Positions 30,653 to 46,446 of a stretch of DNA of 64,000 nucleotides are shown here, in pieces; position 1 is the first letter of the stretch, and each line of letters starts with the position of its first letter. The stretch lies in the NCBI GenBank assembly GCA_002729695.1, contig PBYQ01000035.1, positions 65,344 through 129,343 of the forward strand. The letters are read 5' to 3'. Below the pieces are notes generated by a model that had not been told where the DNA came from, did not search any database, and saw only the letters and a list, made by a program, of their open reading frames with translations. The stretch comes from Citromicrobium sp. (GTDB taxonomy: Bacteria > Pseudomonadota > Alphaproteobacteria > Sphingomonadales > Sphingomonadaceae). The position numbers and the translations under genes were made by a program.

Positions 30653-30739
30653 GCCACTCCGGCTGAGATGCGAGCGAGGGCCAACGTGCCTGACGCTCAA
30701 GCTTGCGGGCTCCCATTCGGGGGCCCGTTTGCCTATCTA

Positions 30740-31132: not shown

Positions 31133-31347
31133 GGCCGGTCAAGCGCCTGATGGTCATCATGATCCGTGGCTGGCAGCTCGGGCCGAGCGTGATTCTGCCC
31201 TCCAGTTGCCGCTTCCAGCCCAGCTGCTCGCAATACGCCATCGAGGCGATCGAGAAATACGGGCCAATCAAGGGTGGATGGCTGGGCTTCAAGCGTATAA
31301 TGCGCTGCCATCCGTGGGGTGGGCACGGCCATGATCCCGTACCCTGA
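31129..31347 (+). CDS. yidD: Membrane protein insertion efficiency factor YidD
   Basis: Internal ATG at 31129 (ATGA overlap with rnpA): CRFQPSCSQYAIEAIEKYG...RCHPW. Confidence 0.9.
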   Translation: MRPVKRLMVIMIRGWQLGPSVILPSSCRFQPSCSQYAIEAIEKYGPIKGGWLGFKRIMRCHPWGGHGHDPVP

Positions 31348-31404
31348 GCCCACGCCCCGATCATCGTTTCCTTTCGCCTGAAGACTAAGCAGGACCGCAT
31401 TTCC

Positions 31405-33189
31405 TTGGACAACCAGCGTAATCTCATCCTCGCCGTGGTGCTGTGCGGCATCCTGATCCTCGGTTACGATGCCGGCATCAGCTATTTCTACCCGACCCCG
31501 CCCGATACCGAGCAGGTCAACCGGGCGACCACGCCCGAGCAGCGGCGCGCGGCGGAAATCCAGGAAAACAGCGATGCGGGACCGGCTGCGACTCGCAACG
31601 CGGTCGCGGTCGATCAGGCAGAGACGGCGGTAGACCTCGAACAGGCGCTTGCTTCGGGCAACCGCGTGCGGATCGATGCGCCGCGGGTCGAAGGGTCGAT
31701 CAATCTTGTCGGCGCACGGATCGACGATATCGAGCTGAAGGATCACCGCGCGACGGTCGACAAGGACAGCGGCCCGGTGCAGCTGTTCGCGCCTGCGGGC
31801 ACTCCGATCCAGTATTTCGCGCAATTCGGGTTCGTCGGCGACGGCACCCAGCTGCCCGACGCGAAGACCGTCTGGAAGGCGAGCGGCGATGTGCTTTCGC
31901 CTGACAGCCCGGTGGAATTGCAATGGGACAATGCGGAGGGCCAGCGCTTTCGCATCCGCCTGTCGATCGACGACAATTACATGATCACCGCCGACCAGAC
32001 CGTGGCCAATATGGGCGACGGTCCGGTCGTGATCTCTCCCTTCGCGACGATCACGCGCACCAGCACCACATCGAGCAAGAGCACCTGGATTTCGCATTCC
32101 GGCCCGATCGGCTCGTTCGGCGGCTCGGTCGATTACGGCCCGGACTACAAGGATGTCGTCGAGGACACGGCGATTTCGGGTGCTGCCGATCCTGCCTGGA
32201 TCGGCTTTACCGACGTATACTGGCTCGGCGCGATGATCCCGCAGAGCGGCGCCGGGCTCAGCACCGGTTTCCGCTCGCTCGGCAATGATCTGTTCCGCGC
32301 GGACATGATCTACAACCCGACCACGCTGCGCCCCGGCCGCCAGATCACCCGCACTTCGCGCGTGTTTGCGGGCGCGAAGGAAAGCGGCGTGCTCGATCTC
32401 TATCAGGATCAGGGCATTTCGCAGTTTGGCCTCGCGATCGACTGGGGCTGGTTCCGCTGGTTCGAAAAGCCGATCCTGTGGCTGCTGCGCCAGATCTTCT
32501 CGGTCGTCGGCAATTTCGGCGTCGCGATCATCCTGCTGACCTGCATCGTGCGCGGGCTGATGTTCCCGATCGCGCAGAAGGGCTTCGCCAGCATGGCGAG
32601 CATGAAGGCGATCCAGCCTGAAATGAAAAAGCTGCAGGAGAAGTACAAGGACGACAAGGTCCAGCAGCAGCAGGAAATGCAGAAGCTGTTCAAGGAGCGG
32701 GGCGTCAATCCTGTCGCCGGCTGCCTGCCGATGCTGCTGCAGATTCCGGTGTTCTTCGCACTGTACAAGGTGCTGATCCTCGCGATCGAGATGCGCCACC
32801 AGCCGTTCGTCTTCTGGATTAAGGACTTGTCCGCTCCCGATCCGGCGCACATCCTCAACCTGTTCGGCATGCTGCCGTTCGAGGTGCCCGGGATGCTTGC
32901 TCTCGGCCCGCTCGCCTTGCTGCTCGGCTGCACGATGTGGCTGACCTTCAAGCTCAACCCGGCGGCGATGGACCCGGTCCAGCAGCAGGTCTTCTCGATC
33001 ATGCCGTGGGTGCTGATGTTCGTGATGTCGCCCTTCGCGGCCGGGCTGCTGCTTTACTGGAACACGTCCAACCTGCTGACGCTGGCACAGCAGAAGTACC
33101 TCTATTCCAAGCATCCGCAGCTGCGTGAGGCGGCGGATCGGGAACGGGCGGAAAAGGCGGCCAAGGCCCAGTCGGAAAGCAAGGCGTGA
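31405..33189 (+). CDS. yidC: Membrane protein insertase YidC
   Basis: 594 aa with a TTG start: N-terminal TM helix, large periplasmic domain and conserved C-terminal 5-TM core. Confidence 0.95.
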   Translation: MDNQRNLILAVVLCGILILGYDAGISYFYPTPPDTEQVNRATTPEQRRAAEIQENSDAGPAATRNAVAVDQAETAVDLEQALASGNRVRIDAPRVEGSINLVGARIDDIELKDHRATVDKDSGPVQLFAPAGTPIQYFAQFGFVGDGTQLPDAKTVWKASGDVLSPDSPVELQWDNAEGQRFRIRLSIDDNYMITADQTVANMGDGPVVISPFATITRTSTTSSKSTWISHSGPIGSFGGSVDYGPDYKDVVEDTAISGAADPAWIGFTDVYWLGAMIPQSGAGLSTGFRSLGNDLFRADMIYNPTTLRPGRQITRTSRVFAGAKESGVLDLYQDQGISQFGLAIDWGWFRWFEKPILWLLRQIFSVVGNFGVAIILLTCIVRGLMFPIAQKGFASMASMKAIQPEMKKLQEKYKDDKVQQQQEMQKLFKERGVNPVAGCLPMLLQIPVFFALYKVLILAIEMRHQPFVFWIKDLSAPDPAHILNLFGMLPFEVPGMLALGPLALLLGCTMWLTFKLNPAAMDPVQQQVFSIMPWVLMFVMSPFAAGLLLYWNTSNLLTLAQQKYLYSKHPQLREAADRERAEKAAKAQSESKA

Positions 33190-33842
33190 GCGCTCCCGGC
33201 CCGGGCCCGCAAACGCCCGACGAAATCGCCGCCGCGCGCATGGTTTCGGGCCGGGTCGAGTTCCTGCTCTCGGCCCCGCAGCTGAAATTTCTGCCCGAGC
33301 CGACGGTGCCCGAAGTCGCCCTCGCCGGGCGCTCCAACGTCGGCAAGAGCTCGCTGCTGAACGCGCTGACGATGCGCCGTGGTATCGCGCGTGCTTCGGT
33401 GACGCCCGGACGGACGCAGGAACTGAACATCTTCGAAGTCGGCGCGCCGACGCAGTTCCGGCTGGTCGACATGCCCGGCTACGGCTTCGCCAAAGCGCCC
33501 AAGAGCGTGGTCGAGAAGTGGCAGGGGCTCGTGCGCACCTACCTGCGCGGGCGGCCCGTGCTGGCGCGCACGCTGGTGCTGGTCGACAGCCGCCATGGGC
33601 TCAAAGACAGCGACCGGGCGATGATGAAGATGCTCGACGAAGCGGCGGTCGGCTATCGCATCGTCCTGACCAAGAGCGACAAGATCAAGGCGAGCGCGCT
33701 GCAAGCGATGCACGAAAAGGTCGCAGCCGAAGCGAAGAAGCATCCTGCGGCCTACCCGGAAATCCACCTCACCAGTGCCGAAAAGGGACAGGGCATTGCT
33801 GCCCTGCGCGCCGCCGTGGTCGCGGACGCGCTGACGCCGTAG
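33186..33842 (+). CDS. engB: Ribosome biogenesis GTPase EngB/YihA
   Basis: G1 motif GRSNVGKSS, followed by DMPGYG and TKSDK. 4-nt overlap with yidC. Confidence 0.9.
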   Translation: MSAPGPGPQTPDEIAAARMVSGRVEFLLSAPQLKFLPEPTVPEVALAGRSNVGKSSLLNALTMRRGIARASVTPGRTQELNIFEVGAPTQFRLVDMPGYGFAKAPKSVVEKWQGLVRTYLRGRPVLARTLVLVDSRHGLKDSDRAMMKMLDEAAVGYRIVLTKSDKIKASALQAMHEKVAAEAKKHPAAYPEIHLTSAEKGQGIAALRAAVVADALTP

Positions 33843-33918
33843 GCTCGGCTTCGCTCGACAGCGCAGGGGCGGCGCTCTACCCGCTTGCCCGATCCAGGAT
33901 TACGCGGCCGGACACGAC

Positions 33919-34587
33919 ATGAAACTGATCATCGGTAACAAGAACTATTCGAGCTGGAGCCTTCGCGGCTGGCTGGCGTGCAAGCAGGCGGGCCTCTCCT
34001 TCGAGGAAATCCTGGTGCCCTTGTTCGGAGAGGACTGGGAAGCGATCAGGCGCGGCGAGGGCGATCTGACGCCGTCATCGGGCAAGGTGCCGATCCTGTG
34101 GGACGACGAGGCGGTCGTGTGGGACAGTCTCGCGATCCTCGAATATCTGGCCGACAAGGTCGGGCGCGACCGATTCTGGCCCAAGGATGACAGCGCCCGG
34201 GCGATGGCGCGCGCCATGGTTGCGGAGATGCACAGTTCGTACCTGTCGCTGCGCCGCGAATGCCCGATGAACATCCGCACGCGCCACCAGAACGTGAAGA
34301 TATCCGAAACCACCCGGCAGGACGTTGTCCGCATCCTCGGCCTGTGGGCAGAGGCGCGCGCGCGTTTCGGCAGCGGCGGGCCGTTCCTGTTCGGCACCTT
34401 CGGGGCGGCGGACATTTTCTACGCCCCCGTTGTCAGCCGCTTCATCACCTATGGCTTCGGCGTGCCGGGATTTGCGGAAAGCTACATGCAGGCGGTCTGG
34501 ACGCACGACTGGCTGCAACAGTGGATCGCCGCGGCCGAGGACGAGCAATGGGTGATCGAGCAGTACGAGAGCGTCGCCGCCAATTGA
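33919..34587 (+). CDS. Glutathione S-transferase family protein
   Basis: MKLIIGNKNYSSWSLRGWLACKQAGLSFEE...VPILWDDEAVVWDSLAILEYL. Confidence 0.85.
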   Translation: MKLIIGNKNYSSWSLRGWLACKQAGLSFEEILVPLFGEDWEAIRRGEGDLTPSSGKVPILWDDEAVVWDSLAILEYLADKVGRDRFWPKDDSARAMARAMVAEMHSSYLSLRRECPMNIRTRHQNVKISETTRQDVVRILGLWAEARARFGSGGPFLFGTFGAADIFYAPVVSRFITYGFGVPGFAESYMQAVWTHDWLQQWIAAAEDEQWVIEQYESVAAN

Positions 34588-35471
34588 TCTTGCGTCCGGT
34601 TACGAGGTTGTGCGCGGCCCTGGCGGCTTTTGCGCTGCTGCTGCCGACGGCGGCTCATGCTTGGGGCTATTACGCGCACGGGATCGCCGCAGAGATCGCG
34701 CAGGCGAACATCCGGCCTGAAACGCGCGCGAAGCTGGAGCAGCTGTTCGCCGCCGAGCCGCTGATCGGCACGCCCGACTGCCCGCTCGGCAATCTGGTGG
34801 AGGCGGCGACATGGCCCGATTGCATCCGACGCGAAGGTTGGCGCTGGGGCTATACCTCGGCGTGGCACTATCAGACCGAGCCGGTGACCGAAGACTACGA
34901 CGCGCGCAAGAACTGCACGGGCGGCAATTGCGTCAGCGCGCAGATAGAGCGGAACTTCCGCATTCTCGCCGACGAGCGCCTGCCTGCCAACGTCCGGCTG
35001 CAGGCGCTCGCCTTCGTGGTCCACTTCACCGGCGACATTCACATGCCGTTGCATTCGGGCGATCTGGACGACCGGGGCGGTAACGACCGCGAGGCCGCCT
35101 ATGGCATCGCGCCGGGGCTCAACCTCCACTGGATCTGGGACGGTCCGCTGGCCGAACGCGCGATCACCAGCGCGCGGCCCTCGCTGGTGCGCCACCACAC
35201 CGCCGCCGAGCGCGCCGAGCTGGCGGGCGGCACGCCTGCCGACTGGGGCCGCGAGAGCTGGGAGACCGCGCGCGATTTCATCTATCCTAACGCCTTCGAT
35301 CGCAGCCCGCTCAACGGACCGCTGCCCGATGAGACCGCGCTGACGCAGGAGGCTATCGAAGCTGCGATTCCGGTATCGCAGCGCCGGGTAACCCAGGCGG
35401 GCCTGCGGATTGCCGACCTGCTTGACCGCGCGATGGAGCCGGGACCGCTGCCTGAGCCCGCGGGCGATTAG
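34584..35471 (+). CDS. S1/P1-family nuclease (secreted)
   Basis: No in-frame ATG, so a TTG start is inferred at 34584 (alternatives 34590, 34608). Signal ...AAFALLLPTAAHAWG. Metal motifs HFTGDIHMPLHSGDLDDRGGN. Confidence 0.8.
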   Translation: MILRPVTRLCAALAAFALLLPTAAHAWGYYAHGIAAEIAQANIRPETRAKLEQLFAAEPLIGTPDCPLGNLVEAATWPDCIRREGWRWGYTSAWHYQTEPVTEDYDARKNCTGGNCVSAQIERNFRILADERLPANVRLQALAFVVHFTGDIHMPLHSGDLDDRGGNDREAAYGIAPGLNLHWIWDGPLAERAITSARPSLVRHHTAAERAELAGGTPADWGRESWETARDFIYPNAFDRSPLNGPLPDETALTQEAIEAAIPVSQRRVTQAGLRIADLLDRAMEPGPLPEPAGD

Positions 35472-35484
35472 GGCGTGCGCTTCG

Positions 35485-35500
35485 CTGCGTAGCGTGTGCC
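35485..35500 (+). repeat. Left direct repeat (candidate attL core) of the genomic island
   Basis: CTGCGTAGCGTGTGCC. This is 15/16 identical to 45967-45982 and in the same orientation. Confidence 0.65.
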
Positions 35501-35913
35501 CGGTCAACCGGGTTTCTGGCTGCGTGTTCGGATCCGGTCTCACTGCGATCAATGGCCTGAGAGTTTTAATCTATTTTCCAGTGGATTGACGCGCCTTCTA
35601 GCGGCATCCGAGCGGAAAAGTTTTCTCAAGATGGTTCCAAAGTCAGGGCTTAAAATCACGCTCTGTTCCGAAATGGGGACCAAATAGCCAACATGCATAT
35701 CCTACCATCCGTCGGACGCACGCAGCCACTTCCAACTGCTTGCTTGACCCTATCGAAGAATTGTTGAACTAGAAGCACATGCTCATAGCGAAACTGCCTG
35801 CACTGAATCGTTCCGCCTTTGGCGACGAGCGGTTTGGCGCGCGCAATTACCGCGCCCTGCTGCCCAATCAAAGCGCTGCGCCCTAGTTCGGTCACCACCC
35901 AGACAAAGGACGC

Positions 35914-35944
35914 AGCCCCGCCGAGAAATCGACGGGGCTTTTTT
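35914..35944 (+). terminator. Rho-independent terminator just upstream of hen1, with no annotated gene in front of it
   Basis: AGCCCCG-ccgagaaatcga-CGGGGCT followed by TTTTT(T). Confidence 0.55.
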
Positions 35945-35961
35945 GTACCCGGATAGAGAAA

Positions 35962-37368
35962 ATGCTTCTGACAATCTCCACCACTCACAGGCCTGCTACC
36001 GACCTCGGCTTCCTCCTGATGAAGCATCCGGAGAACGTCCATTCGGTCGACCTGCCGTTCGGATCAGCGACTCTGTTCTACCCAGAGGCCGGGGAGGATC
36101 GATGCACCGCCGCGATTACTCTGGAGGTCGATCCGGTCGCACTGGTCAGGGGCAAGGCAAGCATTGAGGATCAGTACGTCAACGACCGGCCTTATGCCGC
36201 GTCATCGCTACTGTCGGTCGCCCTTGGCCGCCTTCTCAATACCGCAATGGGCGGTCGATCGAAGCTGCGTCAAGAGCTTGCTGATACCGCGATCCCGCTT
36301 GAATGTTCTCTTACGCCTCTCCCGGCCAGGGGGTCGGCTGACCTTCTGGCGCGCATGTTCGAACCGTTGGGATACTCGGTCGAGGCAGAAGCAATTCTGC
36401 TCGATCCGGCGCATCCAGAGTGGGGGGCTAGCCCATACGTGTCGCTGAACATCAAAGGCACGGTAAGGATTCAGGACCTGCTTACGCACCTCTTCGTACT
36501 CATTCCGGTGCTGGACAATTCCAAGCACTATTACGTGGGCGAGGATGAGGTCAAAAAACTGCTGCAAAAGGGTGGCGAATGGCTTGAGGCTCATCCTGAA
36601 AAGGAACTCATCGTTCGTCGTTACCTGCTCGGGTTCCGGTCGCTCATGCGGTCAGCAACCGAGCAACTAGAGGAGCGGGTTGAAGCGGAAGAACCGGAGG
36701 AACACGCATCGCGCGATGCCGAGGAAGAAAAGATCGAAAAGCCGATCCGGCTCAACACGCAGCGCATGGATTATCTGGCGGACTTGATCCGTAAACTCGG
36801 GGCGTCGAGCGTACTCGATCTTGGTTGCGGAGAAGGCCGGCTGTTGCGCCAGCTTCTCACGATCAAGGGTCTCGACCGCATTGTGGGCGTGGAGGTCGCG
36901 CCGCGCGTTCTGGCAAAAGCAGGTGACCGGCTGAAGCTGGAGCACATGCCGGACATCAAGCGCAAGCGGATTGAGCTGATGCAAGGCTCGCTCGTGTACC
37001 GCGACGATCGACTGAAGGGTTTCGACGCGGCCGCCCTTGTGGAGGTTATCGAGCACATCGATGCAGAGAGGTTGCCAGCACTGGAAGCGGCCTTGTTCGG
37101 TCACGCGCGACCGGCAAACGTGATCGTGACCACTCCCAATAGCGAATACAACGTCCTTTTCGAAGGGATGGAGCCAGGCGCCATGCGGCATTCGGACCAT
37201 CGGTTCGAGTGGTCGCGTTCCGAATTCCACCATTGGGCGGAATCAGTTGCGAAGGCGTACGGCTACGAGGTCCGATACGAAGGCATTGGGAGCGAAGATC
37301 CAACTTATGGTCACCCGACACAGGTCGCCATCTTTTCACGCGTCGATGCGGTGAAGGAGGCGGCATGA
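35962..37368 (+). CDS. hen1: Bacterial Hen1, 3'-terminal RNA ribose 2'-O-methyltransferase
   Basis: N-terminal MLLTISTTHRPATDLGFLLMKHPENVHS...FYPEA (bacterial Hen1 N-domain). C-terminal SAM motif VLDLGCGEGRLL and EVIEHID. Confidence 0.9.
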   Translation: MLLTISTTHRPATDLGFLLMKHPENVHSVDLPFGSATLFYPEAGEDRCTAAITLEVDPVALVRGKASIEDQYVNDRPYAASSLLSVALGRLLNTAMGGRSKLRQELADTAIPLECSLTPLPARGSADLLARMFEPLGYSVEAEAILLDPAHPEWGASPYVSLNIKGTVRIQDLLTHLFVLIPVLDNSKHYYVGEDEVKKLLQKGGEWLEAHPEKELIVRRYLLGFRSLMRSATEQLEERVEAEEPEEHASRDAEEEKIEKPIRLNTQRMDYLADLIRKLGASSVLDLGCGEGRLLRQLLTIKGLDRIVGVEVAPRVLAKAGDRLKLEHMPDIKRKRIELMQGSLVYRDDRLKGFDAAALVEVIEHIDAERLPALEAALFGHARPANVIVTTPNSEYNVLFEGMEPGAMRHSDHRFEWSRSEFHHWAESVAKAYGYEVRYEGIGSEDPTYGHPTQVAIFSRVDAVKEAA

Positions 37369-39908
37369 AGATCGAGATTCCAGAATTCGCGCTTGTCCTT
37401 CTGGTTGGCGCGTCGGGTATGGGCAAGTCTACCTTTGCGTCGAAGCACTTCCTGCCGACTGAGGTCGTATCCTCGGATCGCATGCGTGGTTGGATTGCCG
37501 ATGACGAGACTGACCAGTCCGCCACCGGCGACGCCTTCGACGTGCTCCATTTCATCGTCGAGAAACGGCTCAAGAACCGGCGGTTCACGGTCGTTGATGC
37601 AACCAGTGTACAACCGGAATCCCGCAAGAGCCTGGTCGCGCTTGCCCGCAAATGGCACGCCCTGGTCGTCGCCATTACCTTCGAACTGCCCGAAGAAGTC
37701 GCACTTGCTCGCAACGCCGAGCGTCCCGACCGCCAGTTTGGTGCAGGACCGGTCCGTCGCCAGATGCTCAATCTGAAACGCTCCATCAAAAGCATGGGGC
37801 GCGAAGGCATCCGCTACGTGCATCGCTTGCGCTCCATCGAGCAGGTGGAGGCGGTCGAGATAACGCGGACGCGCCTTTGGACTGACCGTCGCGAAGACTC
37901 CGGACCGTTCGACATTATCGGTGACGTGCACGGTTGTGCCGATGAACTCGAAACCATCTTGGACGAGCTTGGCTATCAAGTTTCGTGGGATGGCAAGGAC
38001 GTCCATGTAACTCCACCTGAAGGTCGCAGGGCGATCTTCGTTGGTGACCTCGTTGATCGTGGACCGCGTTCACCTGACGTCCTGCGTATCGCGAAACACA
38101 TGGTGGACTCCGGCACTGCCTTGGCCGTGGTCGGAAACCACGATGACAAGCTGAAGCGCCATCTGTCTGGCCGCAACGTCAAGCCGACGCACGGCCTTGC
38201 CGAGACCATCGAGCAGCTTGGTAGCGAGCCGCCGGAGTTCTTGGCTGAGATGCGCGAGTGGCTCGACGGTCTTTTGAGTCACTACCTGCTCGACGATGGG
38301 AAGCTCGTCGTCGCCCATGCCGGTCTAAAGGAAGAAATGCAGGGCCGCGCCTCTGGCGCGATCCGCAGCTTCTGCATGTATGGTGAAACGACTGGCGAGG
38401 TCGATGAGTTTGGCCTCCCCGTCAGGTGGGACTGGGCATCCGAATACAAGGGTCGCGCAAAGGTCGTTTACGGGCACACCCCGGTGCTCGAAGCGAACTG
38501 GGTCAACGGCACGATTTGCATCGATACCGGCTGCGTGTTCGGCGGCAAATTGACCGCTCTTCGCTACCCCGAACTTGAGTTGGTATCGGTCGACGCCGAG
38601 CAGACCTACTACGAGCCGATCAGGCCACTTGGTGGTCCCGCAGCCGATACGGGGAGCACGCCTGCACATCAGCTCAACATCGCTGACGTGCTCGGCAAGC
38701 AGGTAATCGAAACTGGCCTCTATGGTCATGTGACGGTGCGTGAAGACAACGCCGCTGCCGCACTAGAGGTAATGACTCGGCACGCAGTCGATCCGCACTG
38801 GCTGATCCATCTGCCGCCGACCATGTCGCCAGCGGAAACGAGCGCACAGGAAGGATGGCTAGAGCGGCCGGAAGAGGCCTTCGCCTATTACGGCTCGAAG
38901 GGCGCACGAAAGCTTGTGCTCGAAGAAAAGCACATGGGCTCGCGCGCGCTCATCGTGCTGTCGAAAACCCAAGAAACCGCGGCAAAGCGCTTTGGCGTTC
39001 ACGATGGTTCTCGAGGAACCATCGTGACCCGAACCGGTCGGCGCTTTTTCAACGATGCCGAATTGGAGGCGTCGGTTCTGCACCGCGTGGACCAGGCGAT
39101 GGAGAGTTCGGGCCTGTGGACTGAGCTCGATACCGATTGGGTCCTGTGGGACTGTGAAATCATGCCTTGGAGCATGAAGGCCGGTGCGCTTGTGCGCGGC
39201 CAATACGCTTCAGTTGGCGCAGCCGCCAACTCTGGATTGTCTGCCCTCGATGCCGCTTTGCAGGCTGCCATCGCACGTGGCGTGGATGTCAAAGATTTGG
39301 GCGCGCGAGTGTCCCAGCGCGTCGAAGACGCGGCGAGCTATCGCGAAGCGTACAATCGGTATGTCCACCCGTTCGAGGGCATAGCAGATCTGAAGATCGC
39401 ACCGTTTCATCTTTTGGCATCTGAGGGTCAGGTACATTCCGATAAGGATCACCTCTGGCACATGGGGATGGCTCACAGGCTATGTGCGGCTGACGCAGAC
39501 CTACTGCTTGCGACCGAATATCGAGCTCTCGATCTCGACGACGCTACTCAGGTTCAAGAGGCAATCGAATGGTGGGAGGCCATGACCGCCAAGGGTGGCG
39601 AGGGCATGGTGGTCAAGCCGCTCGACTTCATCGCTCGCGGTCGGCGCGGCCTTCTGCAACCTGCCATCAAGTGTCGGGGGCGGGAGTATCTGCGGATTAT
39701 CTATGGCCCGCACTACGACCGACCAGGCAACATCGAGCGGCTGAAAAAACGAGGACTTGGCCAGAAGCGGTCAATGGCATTGCGCGAATTCGCGTTGGGG
39801 ATCGAGGCGCTGAAACGGTTCGTCGACCACGCTCCGCTCACACGCGTGCACCAATGCGTGTTCGGAGTGCTGGCGATGGAGAGTGAGCCGGTTGATCCGC
39901 GGCTTTAA
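37365..39908 (+). CDS. pnkp: Polynucleotide kinase-phosphatase (Pnkp), with kinase, phosphoesterase and ligase-like domains
   Basis: ATGA overlap with hen1. P-loop GASGMGKST; calcineurin-type GDVHGC, GDLVDRGP and GNHD; C-terminal nucleotidyltransferase-like region containing EEKHMGSR. Confidence 0.9.
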   Translation: MKIEIPEFALVLLVGASGMGKSTFASKHFLPTEVVSSDRMRGWIADDETDQSATGDAFDVLHFIVEKRLKNRRFTVVDATSVQPESRKSLVALARKWHALVVAITFELPEEVALARNAERPDRQFGAGPVRRQMLNLKRSIKSMGREGIRYVHRLRSIEQVEAVEITRTRLWTDRREDSGPFDIIGDVHGCADELETILDELGYQVSWDGKDVHVTPPEGRRAIFVGDLVDRGPRSPDVLRIAKHMVDSGTALAVVGNHDDKLKRHLSGRNVKPTHGLAETIEQLGSEPPEFLAEMREWLDGLLSHYLLDDGKLVVAHAGLKEEMQGRASGAIRSFCMYGETTGEVDEFGLPVRWDWASEYKGRAKVVYGHTPVLEANWVNGTICIDTGCVFGGKLTALRYPELELVSVDAEQTYYEPIRPLGGPAADTGSTPAHQLNIADVLGKQVIETGLYGHVTVREDNAAAALEVMTRHAVDPHWLIHLPPTMSPAETSAQEGWLERPEEAFAYYGSKGARKLVLEEKHMGSRALIVLSKTQETAAKRFGVHDGSRGTIVTRTGRRFFNDAELEASVLHRVDQAMESSGLWTELDTDWVLWDCEIMPWSMKAGALVRGQYASVGAAANSGLSALDAALQAAIARGVDVKDLGARVSQRVEDAASYREAYNRYVHPFEGIADLKIAPFHLLASEGQVHSDKDHLWHMGMAHRLCAADADLLLATEYRALDLDDATQVQEAIEWWEAMTAKGGEGMVVKPLDFIARGRRGLLQPAIKCRGREYLRIIYGPHYDRPGNIERLKKRGLGQKRSMALREFALGIEALKRFVDHAPLTRVHQCVFGVLAMESEPVDPRL

Positions 39909-42244
39909 GTACGGACCCTGGCCCGCTGCCGGAGGCGTTCATAAAGCTGCACCTCCGCTTCGTGTGACAGTTCGACTGTCACAGCAAAATTCTGGCGACC
40001 AACGTCTCCAGCCCAACCACCCGCGCAGCGGACCACAAGGTAATAGTTGTCGCCGTATTGCTGGATGTCTCTTGAGAAGGTCACAGAAGCAGTTTGAAGA
40101 CTTGATTTCTCGCGGATCGTAGAACTTGGACTCAAATCGCAGTTGTAGCGGTTCTCAACTCGCGGAAACGGCCCTTCCTCTGCGGTTCGCTGGCGAAAAT
40201 GCTCAAAGATCAAGTCAGGCTCACAGCCCCGGATGAGCCGAAATCCCATAGAGACACCATTATAGTCGAGACGACTGTGTCGAACCGGCGGATCATAGGC
40301 TAAACTCACGCGGACCGTGCGGCGGCCGCGCTCCGTTTGAAATGCGTCTGGGATGGGTATCTGGTAAACAGCGAAATGATCGATCTCGAGCTCATCCTCA
40401 GCATAGAGAATGACCCGCGCATCGTCGGAGAACGACGCCCTTTCGGCATCTACTAGCCCATGTCCGCAAAGGTCGAGGGCCGCTCGTCCTCCCAACGGCT
40501 CAAGACGCCTCAGTGCCTCTTCTGGAGGAAGAGCACTGCTTGCTAGAAGTGCGCGAACAAGATTTGCAGATGCATCAGGAAAGCGAGCCAGTATTTGGCT
40601 CGCCTTGAAAGCGACGAGTGGAGCGGCGTACGACGTACCCGAATAGGTCGCAAACAAGCGATCTATTGGCCGATAATGAAGCGAGACAACACCGGCTTCG
40701 GGCCTTGCTTCGCCGCCGCGCAACGCAATTGCTTGCCCGTCATAAATCAGCGTTCCGCCAATGTCTGCGAAATCGGGCTTGATCGATCCCCGCACACCCG
40801 GTCCGGCACGTGAGAACGGAGATGGCTCGTTCAGATCGGCGATGGGACGAATTCCGATATTCTCTTGAGCTTGTCGGCCCAGGCCATTGCTATGCGCAAG
40901 CGAACCGACGGTAACAATGTTCATTCCGCCCGCCGGTTCACAAAGGCGGTTGCTTGGTTCGACCAGATAGCGAGGATATTCCGTAACCGCCTCTTCGATT
41001 CTGTTGCCACCTCGCGGTTGGTGATTTCCGGCGGACACGATGATGACCACGTCCAGCTCACGGACAAGTTCGTCGAGGGTTTGCGTCCAAGGGCCAACCT
41101 TGGATCCTTCGATGAGCTTTTTACGATCACCCAGCGCCACCACAAAAATACGGCAACCAAACTCATCGTGTAAGCGGGTGACAGCCTCGCGCATTAGACG
41201 CGGAGTGAGCCGACTATTCGGAAATCGCCCCCGATCATCCACTACCTTCGCCGAGCAGAGCCTTGCGTAGCGAACCAGCCTCTCCTGCCCAAGCTGAGCC
41301 CGCAAATCGCCAAAGGCGGCTATTCCTCCGACAAAGGTGCCATGGCAAAAATCATCGGCAGTACCGAGCGTGTCCGGAATGGCGATGGATCCCGCGATAA
41401 CGTCTTCAATTAGAGGGTGATCGTTGATCCCGCTATCAATGATGCCAATTAACGGGAGATCGTCGGTCGCGTCCTCGGGGTCTGGCACATCCGCCAACGG
41501 TCGCTCGATTAACTCACTCGTGGTGAGATCGGGCTCAGGCGGAAAGTCGAGTTCGGCGATCTCCTCGATGTTCAGCAGACTGCGGGCCACCGTTCCATCG
41601 GCACGCAATCGAAGCATCGTCAAATTTGGACCAATGTGACGGTCCAACTCTTCTGCCCCGAGGGCCTCTGAGTATGCAGCGATGTCGTCGAGCTTGCGCT
41701 CACGCAAGGCTCGTGGTCCCAAATCCCAAAGTTCGATATCGAGTATATACTCTACACCCGCCTGGAAATCGTCGACCTCAACCAAGCCTTCCTCGCGCGC
41801 GCGCATCCCAATGCGATCACGCGGCGCGACCTCGGCGATCGCATCAACATTTGCGATGAAAGCGGCATAAGCCGGGTTCTGCCGACCCGGCTGCGTTCCT
41901 TGCCCATAGCTGTCTAGCTTGTTCCGGAACTCATCAAGTTCATCACTGTCGGCAAACAAAATGAGTGTGCGATCCTCGTCGCTCGAGAGGACAGTCAGCC
42001 CAACTTTCGCCCACTCATCCTCTTGGAGTGCCCCATGCATCTGGACACGCAAAATAAGTGATGGATCGACGGAATCAGGTCTGCGTCGCCTTCTTTGTGA
42101 CGCTATTGCTTCGTCGAGCTCGTCGCTGAGCTGGCGGCTGTGCCCGCCGGGATTTCGTTGCGGTGGTGGCCCACCGCCGCCGGTTTTGCGGCGAGGGAGG
42201 CGCTCCGGCAGCCTGACAAGCTCAAGGTGATCGTAGCGAGGCAA
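39905..42244 (-). CDS. Cytoplasmic S8 (subtilisin-like) serine peptidase, IetS-like
   Basis: 779 aa, TTG start. Triad D270 (IGIIDSG), H301 (FCHGTFV) and S538 (SGTSYAAP), oxyanion N407 (SAGN). It has a ~265-aa N-terminal and a ~240-aa C-terminal extension. The N-terminus is charged and has no signal peptide. Confidence 0.85.
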   Translation of the reverse strand: MPRYDHLELVRLPERLPRRKTGGGGPPPQRNPGGHSRQLSDELDEAIASQRRRRRPDSVDPSLILRVQMHGALQEDEWAKVGLTVLSSDEDRTLILFADSDELDEFRNKLDSYGQGTQPGRQNPAYAAFIANVDAIAEVAPRDRIGMRAREEGLVEVDDFQAGVEYILDIELWDLGPRALRERKLDDIAAYSEALGAEELDRHIGPNLTMLRLRADGTVARSLLNIEEIAELDFPPEPDLTTSELIERPLADVPDPEDATDDLPLIGIIDSGINDHPLIEDVIAGSIAIPDTLGTADDFCHGTFVGGIAAFGDLRAQLGQERLVRYARLCSAKVVDDRGRFPNSRLTPRLMREAVTRLHDEFGCRIFVVALGDRKKLIEGSKVGPWTQTLDELVRELDVVIIVSAGNHQPRGGNRIEEAVTEYPRYLVEPSNRLCEPAGGMNIVTVGSLAHSNGLGRQAQENIGIRPIADLNEPSPFSRAGPGVRGSIKPDFADIGGTLIYDGQAIALRGGEARPEAGVVSLHYRPIDRLFATYSGTSYAAPLVAFKASQILARFPDASANLVRALLASSALPPEEALRRLEPLGGRAALDLCGHGLVDAERASFSDDARVILYAEDELEIDHFAVYQIPIPDAFQTERGRRTVRVSLAYDPPVRHSRLDYNGVSMGFRLIRGCEPDLIFEHFRQRTAEEGPFPRVENRYNCDLSPSSTIREKSSLQTASVTFSRDIQQYGDNYYLVVRCAGGWAGDVGRQNFAVTVELSHEAEVQLYERLRQRARVRT

Positions 42245-42251
42245 TGACAGC

Positions 42252-43238
42252 TCATGCTTCAGCTATACGCGCTGTGCGTCTACGCCGCCGCCGCTCATCA
42301 GCCAATGCATCGAGGAAGTCCTTTTCCGAAACCTGCTTTCGCTGATCGATGATCGATGCCTTGATCGCCTGAACACAGATCCTTTCCAGTTCAGCGTAGG
42401 AGTATCCATCTAACCCATCCAAATGAGCCTCGGGATCGAACTGCAATGGAACGTTCTTAAATTTCATTCGAAGGAAGCGAGCGGCCATTCGTCGATCAGG
42501 ACGGTCAAACCATATTACTTCGTCAAAACGCCGCCATATCGCGGAATCCAGAGATTGGTCGAAGTTGGTCGCAGCTACCAAAAAGCCTTTCGGTTGGATC
42601 CGATCAATGAATATCAGGAGGCTATTCACTACCCGGCGCAACTCGCTGTGCTCGCCATCTTCGCTCCGTGCACGGGCTAGCGCATCAAACTCATCGAAAA
42701 AGAGGACAGTAGGTTGCTTGCGAGCAAACTCGAAGATTTTGCGGATATTTGTCGCTGTTTCGCCAAGGTATGACGAGATTAGCCGGTCAATCTTAACGAT
42801 ATAGAGCGGCAAACCGAGTTCTGCAGCGAACACTTCAGCACACAATGTCTTGCCGCAGCCTGGCGGCCCGCAGAAAAGCAATTTGGAGCGCACAGGCAGG
42901 CCGCGCCGACGGATTTCGTCGCCGCGACGATATTCTCGCAGCAACGACAAGAAGATTCGCACATTCTCGGAGGACAGTACGATGTCCTGTTTGTTGTGTG
43001 ACGGCTCGACCAGCTCGATGAAATCACCAGCTGACTCTGGGAATGGAATTAATGGCGCAAGGCCTCTCGGCTTTGATCGCGGCGAAGGGCCGGCCTCCAA
43101 GGATTTGCGCAGCGAACGAGCCAGAACGCGGTTATTTTTCTTCTCCTCTTCGCCGATGATCTGCTCGGCCACAGCGCGGAACTCTTCGTCCCGGCCGTAA
43201 CTTGCCAGCAGCTTTTTCATCAACTCACCGCGCGCCAT
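42252..43238 (-). CDS. Classic-clade AAA+ ATPase, IetA-like
   Basis: Walker A GPPGCGKT, Walker B VLFFDEFD, sensor-1 ATN, and RRFD. It ends 7 nt upstream of the S8 gene. The start is uncertain (TTG 43271, ATG 43238 or ATG 43220). Confidence 0.85.
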   Translation of the reverse strand: MARGELMKKLLASYGRDEEFRAVAEQIIGEEEKKNNRVLARSLRKSLEAGPSPRSKPRGLAPLIPFPESAGDFIELVEPSHNKQDIVLSSENVRIFLSLLREYRRGDEIRRRGLPVRSKLLFCGPPGCGKTLCAEVFAAELGLPLYIVKIDRLISSYLGETATNIRKIFEFARKQPTVLFFDEFDALARARSEDGEHSELRRVVNSLLIFIDRIQPKGFLVAATNFDQSLDSAIWRRFDEVIWFDRPDRRMAARFLRMKFKNVPLQFDPEAHLDGLDGYSYAELERICVQAIKASIIDQRKQVSEKDFLDALADERRRRRRTARIAEA

Positions 43239-43423
43239 TCTCTTCCATTCAACCGAAGTCGCCCCAGACAACTATAGCGATTGTTCTCTAAATCGCCAGC
43301 AATGACGCGCAAGCGGATCACCGAACCTTTCGGAGCTATCTCGCTCTGGCGAAAGGATTCCTCTGGCGAAGAATCACAATCCGTATGCGCACCTTGTGCT
43401 TGTCCACATTTCGTCCACAAGGA

Positions 43424-44641
43424 TCAATTCCAAAGCGACTGATTTCCCCCGCACATTCGTTCGACTGCGTCGCCAATCTGCTGCGTCGCATCTAGCAAGT
43501 GGTCATCATCCAAATGCGCATACCGGGCCGTCGACTGGTGGTTCGCATGGCCAAGCAATCGACCGATCATGGGCAGCGTTTCCTTGTTCATGGCGGCATG
43601 GCTGGCGAAGGTGTGTCGCAGGTCATGGATGCGGACGTGACCAAGTCCGGCACGTTCGCGGATGCCTTTCCATGCCCAGGCCACATCGCGCATTTGCCGC
43701 CGGTACCGGTAGTTCCAGAACAGCCAAGGCAGTTTCCGATGGCGTGGAATGCCAGCAATGACCTCTCGTGCGGCGGAGCCGAGCCAGACGGTGCGCGGTC
43801 CTGTCTTGCTGTCGCGAAGGTTCAGCCGATTTCCCTTCACTTCGCCCCAGTGCAGATTGAGTATCTCGCCTCGTCGACAGCCGGTCAGCAGCAGCAAGGT
43901 GATTGCCGCGCCTTCACAGCGGGCGGTCAGATCGTCGCTCTCCCGTAGCTTCGCAAGCTCGATGCCGACGCGCCCCAGCTCTTCAACCGTCAAAAACCGC
44001 TCGCACTGGCGTTTGCGGTTTGGTCGGATCGACCGGCACGGGTTGGTATTCTCCAGCCGATACCCCCACGCCTCAGCCTTGTTGAGCATGTGCTTGAGGA
44101 TTTCGAGGGTCCGATTGGCAGCACCCGGACCGGTGCGGTTGTTGAGCTCGGCAAACCACTTGGTCACATGCTCTTCGTTGACCTCGTCGATGAAGACGCC
44201 CTTGAAGGCGTCATCGAGGTAGAGCCGCCGGTAGCGTGTGTGTGAATCGAGCGTCGAGGCTTTCCAACGCGGCGACCAGCGGGTCCAATATTCCTCAAGG
44301 AAATCGTCAAACCTCGGCGCGGATCGAATGCGCTTGCGATCGGTGGCCGGATCGCGCCCCACCTGCGCGTAGGCAATGACGCGGCGCGCGACCATTTGCG
44401 CCTGATGGCGCGTGAGGACCGAAGCCGGGCCGATAGTCACGGTGCGGAGCCTGCCGCCCATCCGGGTCTGTACGATGTAGACGTTCCGTCCGCTGGGATA
44501 GTGACGGATGCCGAAGCCGTGCTCGATCCCGAGCCAGGTAGTCGTCCGTGCCTTGCCCTTGGGAACGAGCCTGAAGTTTACCGATGCTCCAACCTCGGCC
44601 AGTGCCTCTTCGACGATGCGCTTGAGGCTGGCAGCGGTCAT
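43424..44641 (-). CDS. Tyrosine-type site-specific integrase (second of a tandem pair)
   Basis: 405 aa, with a DUF4102-like N-terminus. C-terminal catalytic motifs: LTGCRRGE, HDLRHTFAS, LLGH and ARYAHL. Confidence 0.9.
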   Translation of the reverse strand: MTAASLKRIVEEALAEVGASVNFRLVPKGKARTTTWLGIEHGFGIRHYPSGRNVYIVQTRMGGRLRTVTIGPASVLTRHQAQMVARRVIAYAQVGRDPATDRKRIRSAPRFDDFLEEYWTRWSPRWKASTLDSHTRYRRLYLDDAFKGVFIDEVNEEHVTKWFAELNNRTGPGAANRTLEILKHMLNKAEAWGYRLENTNPCRSIRPNRKRQCERFLTVEELGRVGIELAKLRESDDLTARCEGAAITLLLLTGCRRGEILNLHWGEVKGNRLNLRDSKTGPRTVWLGSAAREVIAGIPRHRKLPWLFWNYRYRRQMRDVAWAWKGIRERAGLGHVRIHDLRHTFASHAAMNKETLPMIGRLLGHANHQSTARYAHLDDDHLLDATQQIGDAVERMCGGNQSLWN

Positions 44642-45810
44642 GACCGCAGTCCAATCGCCTGTGCCAGCGAGCCTGAAATACGTTCGGCGGCATCGCCGAT
44701 CACGTCATCGGACAGATGCGCGTACTTCGCCGTCGTCTCCGGCAAGACGTGACCGAGCAGCTTGCCGATAGTGGCGAGCGGCACGTTGTCCATGATCGCG
44801 GTCGAAGCGAAGCTGTGCCGCAGATCGTGGACGCGCAGGTCGGGCATCGCGCAGCGTCGCCGCAGATTGTACCACCACGGCTCGATGTTGACCGGGTGCT
44901 TGCCCCGTGAGTTTACGAACACCAGCGCGTCATCTTCACCGCGCTCAAATCCGGCCAGCACCTCCAGCGCCTGTGAATTGAGCCAGATCACCTTCGGGCC
45001 GGTCTTGCTGTCGGGCAGCACGAGCCGGGGCGGTTTAACCATTCCCCATCGAAGAAACCTGATCTCGCCCAACCGGGCTCCGGTGAACATCAGCAGCCGC
45101 ACTATTGCGACCGGGATGGGATGCTCGGCTTCGGCCTCACGCAAAGCCGCGCCCAAGCGGCGATACTCTGCAGGTGTGAGGTACCGCTCCATCTTCGGGC
45201 GCTTGAAGCGCGGCATTCCCCGGCAAGGGTTCGATCCCTTGCGCCGCATCCGCAGCGCCTCGGCGTATTTCATGAGCGAGGCGAGTACGGGCACGGCGCG
45301 GTTGAAGCTTGTTTCGCCTGCCCCAGAGCAGCCGTCGCGCCAGCGGTGGATGTCGGCGGGCATGATGTCCGCCACCCGCATAGCGCCAAATTCCGGCTCG
45401 ATGGAAAGCCGCCACGCATTGCGATTGCGCTTGATCGTCGAAGGCTTCCAGACCCGCGAAAGGTCATCCCAATACGTCTCGACGAAATCGGAAAGCGTTG
45501 GCGTGGCTTTGACCACGGCACGCTTGGGCAGACCGTCCAGCGCCACCTCAGCCAGAATGCGCCGCGCTTGTGCCCTTGCTACGCCAGCGTCCAGTTCATC
45601 GGTTCGGCCAAGCGAAATCCGGCGATGCTTGCCGCGATGTCGTACGCGGACAAACCAGAAGTAATTGCCGCTCGGCCTGACACGCAGGCCGAACCCGGCA
45701 AGCTCAGTATCCCAGATGCAATATTCGGTCTCGCGAAGCGGCAGCTTGCGCCGCGCGAAATTACCATCGAGCAGTGCCCGGCGCCCGGGCTTTCGCCGCC
45801 TGGGGACCAT
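44638..45810 (-). CDS. Tyrosine-type site-specific integrase (first of the tandem pair, next to the right repeat)
   Basis: FTGARLGE, HDLRHSFAS, LLGH and AKYAHL. The start is chosen at the internal ATG 45810 (MVPRRRKPG...) because the 45951 start would overlap the cupin gene. ATGA overlap with the next integrase. Confidence 0.85.
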   Translation of the reverse strand: MVPRRRKPGRRALLDGNFARRKLPLRETEYCIWDTELAGFGLRVRPSGNYFWFVRVRHRGKHRRISLGRTDELDAGVARAQARRILAEVALDGLPKRAVVKATPTLSDFVETYWDDLSRVWKPSTIKRNRNAWRLSIEPEFGAMRVADIMPADIHRWRDGCSGAGETSFNRAVPVLASLMKYAEALRMRRKGSNPCRGMPRFKRPKMERYLTPAEYRRLGAALREAEAEHPIPVAIVRLLMFTGARLGEIRFLRWGMVKPPRLVLPDSKTGPKVIWLNSQALEVLAGFERGEDDALVFVNSRGKHPVNIEPWWYNLRRRCAMPDLRVHDLRHSFASTAIMDNVPLATIGKLLGHVLPETTAKYAHLSDDVIGDAAERISGSLAQAIGLRS

Positions 45811-45919
45811 ATGGCAATCGTCACTAGCAAAACTGCCCCCAAAAGTCGCGGAATTACCGTCATTTGCGGGGACCGGATGGCCTTCAACAGCATGCCTGCT
45901 GTCGAGCACTTCCAGCATC

Positions 45920-46417
45920 TCACGCACTGATTTTACGGCATTTTTTCCCATACCATGGCAGTCTTACTGCGTAGGGTGTGCCGTCCTTGCGTGCGTAGCC
46001 TTCGGCATCGAACACCATGTCGATATCGGGGTACTCGCCCGAGTCCTTGTCCTTCGCCCCCGCGCTGATCGCGACGAATACGCAATCGGCATTGCTGCAG
46101 TTCTGAAGGTGATGGCCGTTTTGAACGCCCGCTGCCCAAGCGACGACATCGCCGGGGCGGATCACGGTTTCACCTTCATCTTCCACCAGTACCGCTTCGC
46201 CCGAGAGCATCACCAGCAGCTCGTCTTCTTCGCTGTGCCAGTGTCGCTGGCTCGACCAAGCGCCCGGCTTCAGCGTCACATGGCTCGCGCCCATGCGCGT
46301 CAGCCCGGCAACGGGCGCGAGGCGGCGATACCAGCGGCCCTGCACCTCGGCATCGAACGGGGTGGGGTAGCCGGTCGCGTTGGTCTGTGGGATCGCGTCG
46401 AGATCGAGCTTGGGCAT
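45920..46417 (-). CDS. Cupin domain protein whose last 13 codons are island-derived
   Basis: Cupin core: HWHSEEDELLVMLSGEAVLVEDEGETVIRPGDVVAW. After ...KDGTPYA the C-terminus reads VRLPWYGKKCRKISA, encoded left of the attR repeat. Confidence 0.75.
   Translation of the reverse strand: MPKLDLDAIPQTNATGYPTPFDAEVQGRWYRRLAPVAGLTRMGASHVTLKPGAWSSQRHWHSEEDELLVMLSGEAVLVEDEGETVIRPGDVVAWAAGVQNGHHLQNCSNADCVFVAISAGAKDKDSGEYPDIDMVFDAEGYARKDGTPYAVRLPWYGKKCRKISA
45967..45982 (+). repeat. Right direct repeat (candidate attR core) of the genomic island
   Basis: CTGCGTAGGGTGTGCC. It lies inside the 3' end of the cupin ORF, where it encodes GTPYA. Confidence 0.65.
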
Positions 46418-46446
46418 TGGCGAAGTCTCCTGCTAGCGCAAAGGAC

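Follow-up and report, generated by a model that had tools for sequence, protein, structure and literature searches.

The convergent stop codons of a Pnkp/Hen1 RNA-repair operon and an IetAS toxin–antitoxin pair share one TTAA in the 64,000-nt stretch of Citromicrobium sp. DNA that we analysed (hereinafter the window). This TTAA likely marks the left-hand limit of an exchangeable cargo slot within an integrative island, at which two known systems that most likely work independently were juxtaposed by a recent exchange. Such a reading corrects a striking four-gene "system" into two known, independently mobile systems joined by cassette exchange.

The sequence at 39900-39909 is cggcTTTAAg, in which the pnkp stop codon TAA occupies 39906-39908 of the forward strand and the ietS stop codon is the reverse complement of 39905-39907. 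Thus the two open reading frames overlap within one TTAA, as the sequence-only reading had stated (Table 1). Its statement that neither intergenic space nor a terminator separates the operons is borne out, as far as predicted intrinsic terminators go, by the overlapping stops, by a consensus scan of 35000-46500, which lists no terminator-like site at the junction, and by folding of the surrounding 121 nt, which is no better than that of shuffled sequences (z = −0.06 and +0.62 for the two strands). A hidden bidirectional terminator was also considered, and neither the scan nor the folding of both strands gave any sign of one. Neither protein is truncated at the junction: the C-terminus of Pnkp, ...EPVDPRL, is like that of its relatives, and the C-terminus of IetS, ...RARVRT, lines up with ...RVRVRx of the family consensus. 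An assembly artefact or chimera is ruled out, because the isolate genome of Citromicrobium bathyomarinum (locus L018) has an identical junction, as does each of the four places shown for 23 independent contigs that were read. All of these copies belong to one island lineage, so the TTAA itself is without independent replication.

Table 1. Features of the island and its borders (positions in the window; identifications from the sources in the last column)
Feature	Position	Strand	Description	Source or remark
attL	35485..35500	.	left 16-bp direct repeat, CTGCGTAGCGTGTGCC	one mismatch to the copy at 45967-45982
left arm	35501..35961	+	non-coding, 5' of hen1, presumed promoter region	96% conserved with L171
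hen1	35962..37368	+	RNA 3'-terminal ribose 2'-O-methyltransferase, 468 aa	TIGR04074, Pfam
pnkp	37365..39908	+	polynucleotide kinase-phosphatase-ligase, 847 aa	TIGR04075, Pfam
TTAA	39905..39908	.	common to both convergent stops	probable left edge of variable cargo slot
ietS	39905..42244	-	S8 serine peptidase, proposed toxin/effector of IetAS, 779 aa, TTG start	PADLOC, Pfam
ietA	42252..43238	-	AAA+ ATPase, proposed antitoxin/regulator, 328 aa	PADLOC, Pfam
spacer	43239..43423	-	int1 stop to ietA start, 185 nt, presumed ietAS promoter; right part of variable slot	
int1	43424..44641	-	tyrosine recombinase, 405 aa	Pfam Phage_integrase, Arm-DNA-bind_3
int2	44638..45951	-	tyrosine recombinase, 437 aa (426 or 390 with later starts)	Pfam
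attR	45967..45982	.	right 16-bp direct repeat, CTGCGTAGGGTGTGCC	within 3' end of flanking cupin ORF

Upstream of the junction, both proteins of the RNA-repair operon score above the cut-offs of their family models. Specifically, Hen1 reaches 670.7 bits against TIGR04074 (cut-off 340) and Pnkp reaches 1360.5 bits against TIGR04075 (cut-off 750). Hen1 has the N-terminal Pnkp-ligase-associating region and the C-terminal 2'-O-methyltransferase, with Pfam matches to Hen1_L (1.6e-102) and to methyltransferase domains. Pnkp contains 5'-kinase, 2',3'-phosphoesterase and adenylyltransferase/ligase domains (Pfam AAA_33, Metallophos and PNKP_ligase), and its P-loop, phosphatase and EEKHMGSR motifs are invariant relative to its relatives. 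The hen1 stop and the pnkp start overlap as ATGA, and 79 of the 86 related loci contain Hen1 alongside Pnkp. The mechanical open reading frame of pnkp, which begins at a GTG (37209-39908, forward strand, 899 aa), is too long; the true start is the ATG at 37365, which matches public gene calls and all homologues. The left arm upstream of hen1 gave no Rfam match and no match to a sigma-70 consensus over 35501-35961, and L018 carries two additional genes within it, at ~35733-35803. Pnkp-Hen1-type complexes are described as repairing ribotoxin-cleaved RNA in a report that deals with the related Pnkp1-Rnl-Hen1 complex (PMC4411300). The operon of the window would likewise heal, seal and 2'-O-methylate RNAs cut by ribotoxins.

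On the other side of the junction, ietA and ietS are co-directional, with ietA upstream and its stop 7 nt before the ietS start. IetS matches the PADLOC model PDLC02198 (1.1e-117) over residues 3-777, corresponding to profile positions 3-781 of 795, and matches Pfam Peptidase_S8; its catalytic motifs are all intact, namely Asp270 (DSG270), His301 (HGT301) and Ser538 (GTS(538)YAAP). IetA matches PDLC02196 (1.4e-84) over residues 28-330 and Pfam AAA (5.8e-34), with Walker A GPPGCGKT and Walker B VLFFDE. By these matches the AAA-S8 pair is IetAS, a toxin-antitoxin-like anti-phage system that has already been described. The NCBIfam equivalog models score the pair below their cut-offs (89.4 vs 900 bits for IteS_antiphage and 240.5 vs 510 bits for IteA_antiphage), and the profile evidence assigns it to a divergent Y4kK-like subfamily, not to the equivalogs of the experimentally tested enterobacterial pair. 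One publication describes IetAS as a toxin-antitoxin pair that stabilises plasmids and acts against phages by an unknown mechanism (PMC13069673). The pair of the window would be a self-contained two-gene module, in which a serine-protease toxin is matched with an AAA+ ATPase antitoxin, and would act in both addiction and abortive defence.

The four genes and two tandem tyrosine integrases constitute, as judged from sequence comparison, an integrative island of ~10.5 kb at 35485-45982. Tyrosine recombinases lie at one end of it, where int1 and int2 are arranged in tandem with a 4-nt overlap (Pfam domains of int2: Phage_integrase, Phage_int_SAM_3 and Arm-DNA-bind_3). The right repeat falls inside the 3' end of a cupin open reading frame (45920-46417, reverse strand). 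The same 16-bp repeat pair flanks related islands at other sites, in L018, L085 and L171, and the outer flanks differ among them. Homology to the window begins at 35482 for L171 and stops at 45981-45988 for L018, L085 and L171, and for L018 it is confined to 35803-45981, at 96%. The GC content is 54-60% across ~36-44 kb, compared with ~65% in the flanks. The island reads, from left to right, attL, hen1-pnkp (forward strand), slot, int1 and int2 (reverse strand), attR, and the claim that the two cassettes are its entire cargo stands for the window, the island being delimited by the 16-bp repeats. Among the five places shown for 23 contigs encoding an identical flanking S1/P1 nuclease, no empty target site was found; all carry the island. 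A tRNA target for the integrases was discarded, there being no tRNA gene in the window, as was a structured RNA in the island, for which Rfam gave only one sub-threshold chance match. Relatives of Int1 at 81-83% identity flank entirely different cargo. The integrase pair, by such comparisons, also moves independently.

Sibling islands define the slot. In islands whose Pnkp is 93-99% identical to that of the window, an HTH-M78 peptidase/DUF4411 (PIN-like) pair takes the position of IetAS. Specifically, L171, with a Pnkp of 99% amino-acid identity, aligns to the window at 96.3% nucleotide identity over 35482-39907 and at 92.6% over 43458-45988, and between these blocks it carries DUF4411, HTH-M78 and small open reading frames. 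The same alternative cargo is present in L085, L086 and L172 (Pnkp 93% identical) and in L173, L174 and L176 (Int1 97% identical); in L175 and L177 the sequence stops short of the DUF4411 gene or inside it, such that their Pnkp junction lies outside the sequence. Wherever the junction of a sibling is visible, DUF4411 is convergent with Pnkp and the two stops are 7 nt apart. On the left, homology to L085, L171 and L172 stops at 39904-39907. On the right, it resumes only at 43454/43458, inside the last codons of int1, and the last ~10 codons of int1 are cargo-specific, with tails after ...QQIGDAVER that differ among the window, L171, L173 and L085. Because homology breaks at the Pnkp stop and in the last codons of int1, the junction is a cassette-exchange boundary. 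A contig of run X16 diverges after 39906 into a third sequence past the Pnkp stop. The sibling M78 protein has weak matches to PADLOC models of RmrA, the name given to the M78 peptidase in RosmerTA.

IetAS is seen in the slot only in the lineage that is 96-100% identical to the window, while L171 and L085 are collinear through hen1-pnkp-DUF4411-M78 at 80% nucleotide identity, indicating that the pairing of hen1-pnkp with DUF4411-M78 is old. We infer that IetAS recently replaced an older occupant, namely the HTH-M78 peptidase/DUF4411 pair with its small open reading frames; the direction of the swap is judged from lineage breadth, not from a rooted tree. Following such exchanges, probably only the DNA required by the flanking genes persists, so the variable region would start with the final base of the pnkp stop and reach the C-terminal tail of int1, which is dispensable. 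The incoming ietS frame would have been set stop-to-stop against pnkp and compacted by deletion as far as both reading frames allow.

The sequence-only reading had gone further and proposed that the four genes form one co-selected module, in which RNA damage or repair is coupled to a proteolytic abortive response, or the repair operon serves as an antidote. That the four genes are the sole cargo of the island in the window, that all of them moved jointly to a second site in L018, and that their packing is maximally tight are consistent with this proposal. Its expected co-occurrence elsewhere was surveyed in up to 80 loci for each system, with 10 kb to each side. In 78 of 80 species-level loci the gene immediately upstream of IetS is IetA. 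Of the 78 loci whose downstream sequence is usable (L018 included), 64 extend at least 3.5 kb past the IetS stop. Hen1/Pnkp lies within 10 kb of IetS in a single locus, which carries the same island, and in none of the 79 others; conversely, IetAS was found near Pnkp in none of 80 metagenome loci. The S8 match near Pnkp in L111 is a plain subtilase that lacks an AAA partner, and the AAA matches in L127 and L137, at 27-32% identity, sit at a distance of more than 6 kb and lack an S8 partner. The downstream neighbours of Pnkp are heterogeneous, with 102 Pfam families among 100 open reading frames and none in more than three. Across the surveyed loci the combination thus does not recur in independent lineages, an outcome that the sequence-only reading had itself named as refuting, and islands with Pnkp 93-99% identical, L171 at 99% among them, hold a different cassette in place of IetAS. 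Furthermore, the literature has validated IetAS separately as a complete system of two genes, and its toxin is a protease with no evident link to RNA. A joint system is accordingly highly improbable, and the two cassettes most likely function independently.

Could the junction itself have been selected? The cassettes might be biochemically independent and yet retain a terminator-less convergent arrangement, in which interference or antisense RNA makes their expression mutually exclusive or reciprocally tuned. The junction has neither terminator nor stable hairpin, the unrelated sibling cassette also converges on Pnkp, and contigs of X8 and X20 (the type "RNA?" being a guess) extend from Pnkp through the junction of the sibling type. 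Contigs from marine metatranscriptomes (X1, X2, X3 and X11), which are short, unstranded and possibly include DNA, reach into each of the island's genes, on both sides of the junction, and leave 39795-39921 uncovered; with sparse, unstranded coverage this counts weakly against the idea. No further contig for the window junction came from X13 or X16-X18, and the raw reads of X30 gave no mapping. Spacers elsewhere are ordinary (108-670 nt downstream of Pnkp, 390 nt for IetS), so tight coupling is not a property of either system, and the pattern needs no selection for interference, being explained by the compaction of a small mobile element. A count of convergent open reading frames near IetS and Pnkp stops elsewhere was set aside, the heuristic picks looking spurious in high-GC loci. 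Selection for interference is therefore unlikely. The antisense read-through that the sequence-only reading took as a necessity is putative; under the exchange reading it would be a by-product, probably curtailed by Rho and by polymerase collision; Rho-dependent termination of untranslated read-through may operate at the junction.

Another explanation starts from the older occupant of the slot. In three-component toxin-antitoxin systems, DUF4411 is predicted to be a PIN-like toxin (PMC5499597), and Hen1-Pnkp might be an accessory of the neighbouring toxin cassettes that repairs RNA cut by it, IetAS having merely taken the slot. The collinearity of hen1-pnkp with M78/DUF4411 holds from 99% to 93% Pnkp identity and ~80% nucleotide identity, as expected for such a partnership. 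However, DUF4411/M78 is absent from the 84 other Pnkp loci examined (L087-L170), Pnkp/Hen1 persists unchanged beside a protease toxin, and the RNase activity of DUF4411 is only putative. We regard this explanation as most improbable.

M78/DUF4411 has nevertheless stayed beside hen1-pnkp through ~20% nucleotide divergence, which is a point against the exchange of independent cassettes. Both known slot occupants are of toxin type and end no more than 7 nt from the Pnkp stop, and may therefore have a functional or transcriptional link with RNA repair. RNA repair might be tied to whichever toxin fills the slot (DUF4411/M78 or IetAS), for example by reversing collateral RNA damage after the toxin has acted, or a terminator-less convergent-transcription switch might make repair and toxin exclude each other. 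We consider this very unlikely; if true, the island would be a mobile "damage plus repair" unit instead of a carrier of two unrelated passengers.

With the exchange of independent cassettes as the preferred reading, the island family provides an unusually clean natural cargo replacement between fixed flanks, with breakpoints at the pnkp stop and the int1 tail. It is also a concrete case of a Pnkp/Hen1 RNA-repair operon on a small integrative element beside toxin-type modules. Although modest as a discovery, it could guide experiments on the role of Pnkp/Hen1 in vivo, which is still poorly understood.

The bacterial Pnkp/Hen1 RNA repair system was reportedly described by Chan et al. in 2009, in Clostridium thermocellum and Anabaena types. 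The operon of the window resembles it in having all three Pnkp domains (kinase, phosphoesterase and ligase) and, in Hen1, both the ligase-activating N-terminal region and the methyltransferase domain, each protein above its equivalog cut-off, as well as in the overlap between the hen1 stop and the pnkp start. It differs in context: a small integrative island carries the operon of the window, whereas most of the relatives examined lie in ordinary chromosomal contexts with no integrases.

IetAS first became known from an Agrobacterium Ti plasmid, as a toxin-antitoxin pair for plasmid stability/incompatibility; its description as an anti-phage system came later, reportedly from Gao et al. in 2020. 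The pair of the window shares with it the co-directional order in which the ATPase gene precedes the protease gene at a distance of 7 nt, full-length PADLOC matches, and intact Walker motifs and catalytic triad. In contrast, it is of the alphaproteobacterial Y4kK-like subfamily (Pfam Y4kK_N and Y4kK_2nd), it falls far below the cut-offs of the NCBIfam equivalogs, which were built on the enterobacterial type, and its IetS is ~25% identical to the IetS-like proteins of Agrobacterium plasmids. The HTH-M78 (ImmA/IrrE, DUF955) and DUF4411 module is the slot occupant of the sibling islands; it is absent from the window and relevant there only as the cassette that IetAS probably replaced.

Integrase-bounded genomic or defence islands with exchangeable cargo are known, for instance P2/P4-like element hotspots and integrative islands with defence or toxin-antitoxin cassettes. 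The island of the window is similar to these in its terminal tyrosine recombinases, short end repeats, different insertion sites and GC content below that of the host, and in having a slot where unrelated defence or toxin-antitoxin cassettes swap between conserved flanks. Unlike them, it has two tandem, overlapping integrases with no tRNA target found and carries no phage or conjugation genes, and the conserved "backbone" gene beside its slot is an RNA-repair operon.

The window letters at positions 39900-39909 read cggcTTTAAg. Specifically, TAA at 39906-39908 closes the plus-strand pnkp reading frame, and the stop codon of the minus-strand S8 protease gene is the reverse complement of 39905-39907. 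The claim of the sequence-only reading that the two stop codons share one TTAA with zero intergenic DNA is thus borne out by the window sequence and its ORFs, and both proteins are complete as far as the junction. The identical junction is found in L018, the isolate genome of Citromicrobium bathyomarinum, and in the listed places for 23 independently assembled contigs, so the observation is confirmed.

Profile searches identify the genes on both sides. The RNA-repair operon encodes bacterial Hen1 (TIGR04074, 670.7 bits; cut-off 340) and bacterial Pnkp (TIGR04075, 1360.5 bits; cut-off 750). The pnkp ATG sits in the ATGA that ends hen1, and the resulting protein matches public gene calls and all homologues; a mechanically called plus-strand ORF, 37209-39908 (899 aa), is over-extended, the ATG at 37365 being the real start. 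Over its full length the S8 protein matches PADLOC IetS model PDLC02198 (1.1e-117), the AAA+ protein matches PADLOC IetA (1.4e-84), and Walker A, Walker B and the Asp-His-Ser triad of the pair are intact; therefore, the ATPase-protease cassette is IetAS.

Features of the island and its right border (window coordinates)
Feature	Position	Strand	Remark
Left 16-bp direct repeat	35485-35500		CTGCGTAGCGTGTGCC
hen1	35962-37368		
pnkp	37365-39908	+	847 aa
ietS (S8 protease)	39905-42244	-	779 aa
ietA (AAA+ ATPase)	42252-43238		
int1 (tyrosine recombinase)	43424-44641	-	tandem with int2
int2 (tyrosine recombinase)	44638-45951	-	overlaps int1
Flanking cupin ORF	45920-46417	-	
Right 16-bp direct repeat	45967-45982		CTGCGTAGGGTGTGCC

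GC content is 54-60% over about 36-44 kb, against about 65% in the flanks. L018 aligns to the window solely over 35803-45981 (96%), with unrelated flanks, and the alignment of the related locus L171 begins at 35482. The repeat pair also bounds the related islands in L018, L085 and L171. Left copies change in their 5' part with the insertion site, right copies change at their 3' end, and the common core is about GTA[G/C]GGTGTGC; judged by sequence, varying outer ends around a shared core are the pattern expected of attL and attR. The att-like repeats and the alignment limits therefore define a 10.5-kb integrative island, and the two cassettes are, as had been proposed, its exact cargo in the window.

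In L018, attL and hen1 are separated by two further genes: one is fatty-acid desaturase-like, and the other, an ORF of 449 aa, has a weak polyketide-cyclase/START-like match. A second tandem-integrase pair follows directly after that island (L018 16512-21948), and islands of this kind appear to stack in tandem; integrase remnants also lie beside the L175 island. On its left, the window island adjoins an rpmH-rnpA-yidD-yidC-GTPase cluster followed by GST-like and S1/P1 nuclease genes (29900-35471). Every one of the listed places for 23 contigs encoding the identical S1/P1 nuclease carries the island, so no empty site was found in this population. The flanking cupin ORF crosses attR and continues for about 60 nt inside the island, so its last ~20 codons come from island DNA. 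Upstream of hen1 (35733-35803; L018 left flank), TTGCTTGACC...TTGTTGAA.TA.AAGCA.ATG is kept despite falling surrounding identity and may serve the repair operon as a promoter or operator.

The same backbone is present in loci L085, L086 and L172 (Pnkp 93% identical) and L171 (Pnkp 99% identical): they share the att repeats, and hen1-pnkp lies towards one end and the same tandem integrase pair towards the other. Loci L173-L177, found through a 97% identical Int1, carry the same integrase pair and slot cargo, and Hen1-Pnkp is visible in L173 and L174, the two that reach far enough. In these sibling islands ietS-ietA is absent, and the slot between pnkp and int1 is filled by genes for an HTH-M78 peptidase and for DUF4411, together with a few small ORFs. 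DUF4411 is predicted to be a PIN-like toxin and belongs to three-component toxin-antitoxin systems whose other members are HTH and DUF955/M78 proteins (PMC5499597); the sibling M78 protein matches PADLOC RmrA models weakly.

Nucleotide homology between window and siblings ends at 39904-39907, in the pnkp stop codon, and restarts at 43454-43458. Int1 is kept up to ...QQIGDAVER, after which each cargo variant has a different tail of 4 to 20 residues (window 43424-43453; L171, L173 and L085 compared), so the 3' end of int1 has been rewritten repeatedly as cargo was exchanged. A contig from sequencing run X16 matches the pnkp 3' end (window 39770-39906) and diverges right past 39906 (GAGATGCGGTCAAC...); its sequence past the stop resembles neither IetS nor DUF4411, which implies a putative third slot variant. 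On the best-supported reading, a variable cargo slot has its left edge at the TTAA junction. Selection on the flanking genes would set the limits of this slot, on the left at the final base of the pnkp stop and on the right within the dispensable int1 tail, and the incoming ietS ORF would end stop-to-stop against pnkp.

Across hen1-pnkp-DUF4411-M78, L171 and L085 align collinearly with 80% nucleotide identity, and this arrangement is therefore old. IetAS in this island is confined to a 96-100% identical lineage; it is therefore most simply a recent replacement, a probable newcomer in the slot. The long collinearity could be taken to mean that, in this family of islands, Pnkp/Hen1 is functionally tied to the PIN-like DUF4411 toxin, but the association was not seen outside the family, DUF4411/M78 was not found at distant Pnkp loci, and such a tie is very improbable. 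Int1 relatives with 81-83% identity also stand in such a tandem pair, where the cargo is altogether different and hen1-pnkp is missing. Thus, with the slot swapped as well, integrases, RNA-repair operon and slot cassette assort independently.

The island belongs to a Sphingomonadales family of small integrative islands with two overlapping tandem tyrosine recombinases, a 16-bp att repeat and highly variable cargo (window 35485-45982; L018, L085, L086, L171-L182). Cargo comprises hen1-pnkp with IetAS, hen1-pnkp with M78/DUF4411, a TumE-like/HTH set or an SdrD_B-containing set. No tRNA gene was identified as a target. In a Rhodoferax MAG (L037 10909-15340), an IetAS pair is followed closely downstream by DUF4411-like and M78-like genes, so the two cassette types meet in another defence-island-like region.

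The sequence-only reading had further proposed that the four genes form one co-selected functional module, and had named genomic co-occurrence as a way to check it. One genome per GTDB species was scanned for IetS, giving 80 loci with relatives 41-99% identical. IetA lies directly upstream in 78 of the 80 (tblastn), and Hen1/Pnkp occurs within ±10 kb of L018 IetS alone, in the same island as the window; downstream sequence was usable at 78 loci, and in 64 of these, including L018, at least 3.5 kb follow the IetS stop. At 80 metagenome loci with Pnkp relatives 54-79% identical, Hen1 is mostly kept and no IetA-IetS pair was found. The single S8 match near Pnkp, in metagenome locus L111, is an ordinary subtilase beside an esterase and a histidine kinase. 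The 100 ORFs downstream of these Pnkp genes gave 102 Pfam families, each in at most three loci, with scattered toxin-antitoxin and defence matches and no Iet match. Among these loci the combination was found only in this island, and the sibling islands hold another cassette. The structural part of the earlier interpretation, shared stops and island cargo, stands; the IetS loci, Pnkp loci and sibling islands refute the single module on its own terms, and a true four-gene unit of Hen1-Pnkp and IetAS, contradicted by these comparative data, is highly unlikely. Pnkp-Hen1 family proteins repair and 2'-O-methylate ribotoxin-cleaved RNA. We infer that the two systems work independently: Hen1-Pnkp would perform this repair and methylation, and IetAS would act as an addiction and abortive-defence module.

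A scan of the window sequence gave no terminator-like site at the junction, and on neither strand do the 121 nt around it form a stronger fold than shuffled sequence does (z = -0.06 and +0.62). Rho-dependent termination is the expected default for untranslated read-through, and the lack of a hairpin is compatible with it. Marine metatranscriptome contigs, which are sparse, unstranded and possibly DNA-contaminated, touch all island genes, and none covers 39795-39921. Contigs from runs X8 and X20, of uncertain type, span the sibling-type Pnkp/DUF4411 junction. Wherever the sibling islands show this junction, 7 nt separate the stop codons of DUF4411 and pnkp. That two unrelated cassettes each abut pnkp within 7 nt would fit a junction selected as a transcriptional-interference switch. 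However, Pnkp and IetS elsewhere have ordinary downstream spacers of 108-670 nt and compaction accounts for the pattern, which makes a selected switch unlikely. Within int2, a contig from the marine metatranscriptomes X1 and X11, at high depth in X1, joins 45019 to 45334 through about 311 unrelated letters; its ends do not match the window, and its probable source is a related integrase at another place, not a deletion in the window island.

The window element is a small integrative island with two already known systems, and is of modest interest as a very clean cassette replacement and a mobile RNA-repair operon. Repair of ribotoxin-cleaved RNA is established for the Pnkp-Hen1 family (PMC4411300, in part). 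In the literature, IetAS is a plasmid-stabilising toxin-antitoxin system with a protease toxin, an ATPase antitoxin and anti-phage activity (PMC13069673), and its interplay with other defence systems has already been studied (bioRxiv 10.1101/2022.08.21.504612). Close relatives of the window pair are frequent in Alphaproteobacteria and on rhizobial plasmids. Compared with the NCBIfam equivalogs, the window IetAS scores far under the cut-offs and represents a divergent, Y4kK-like subfamily.
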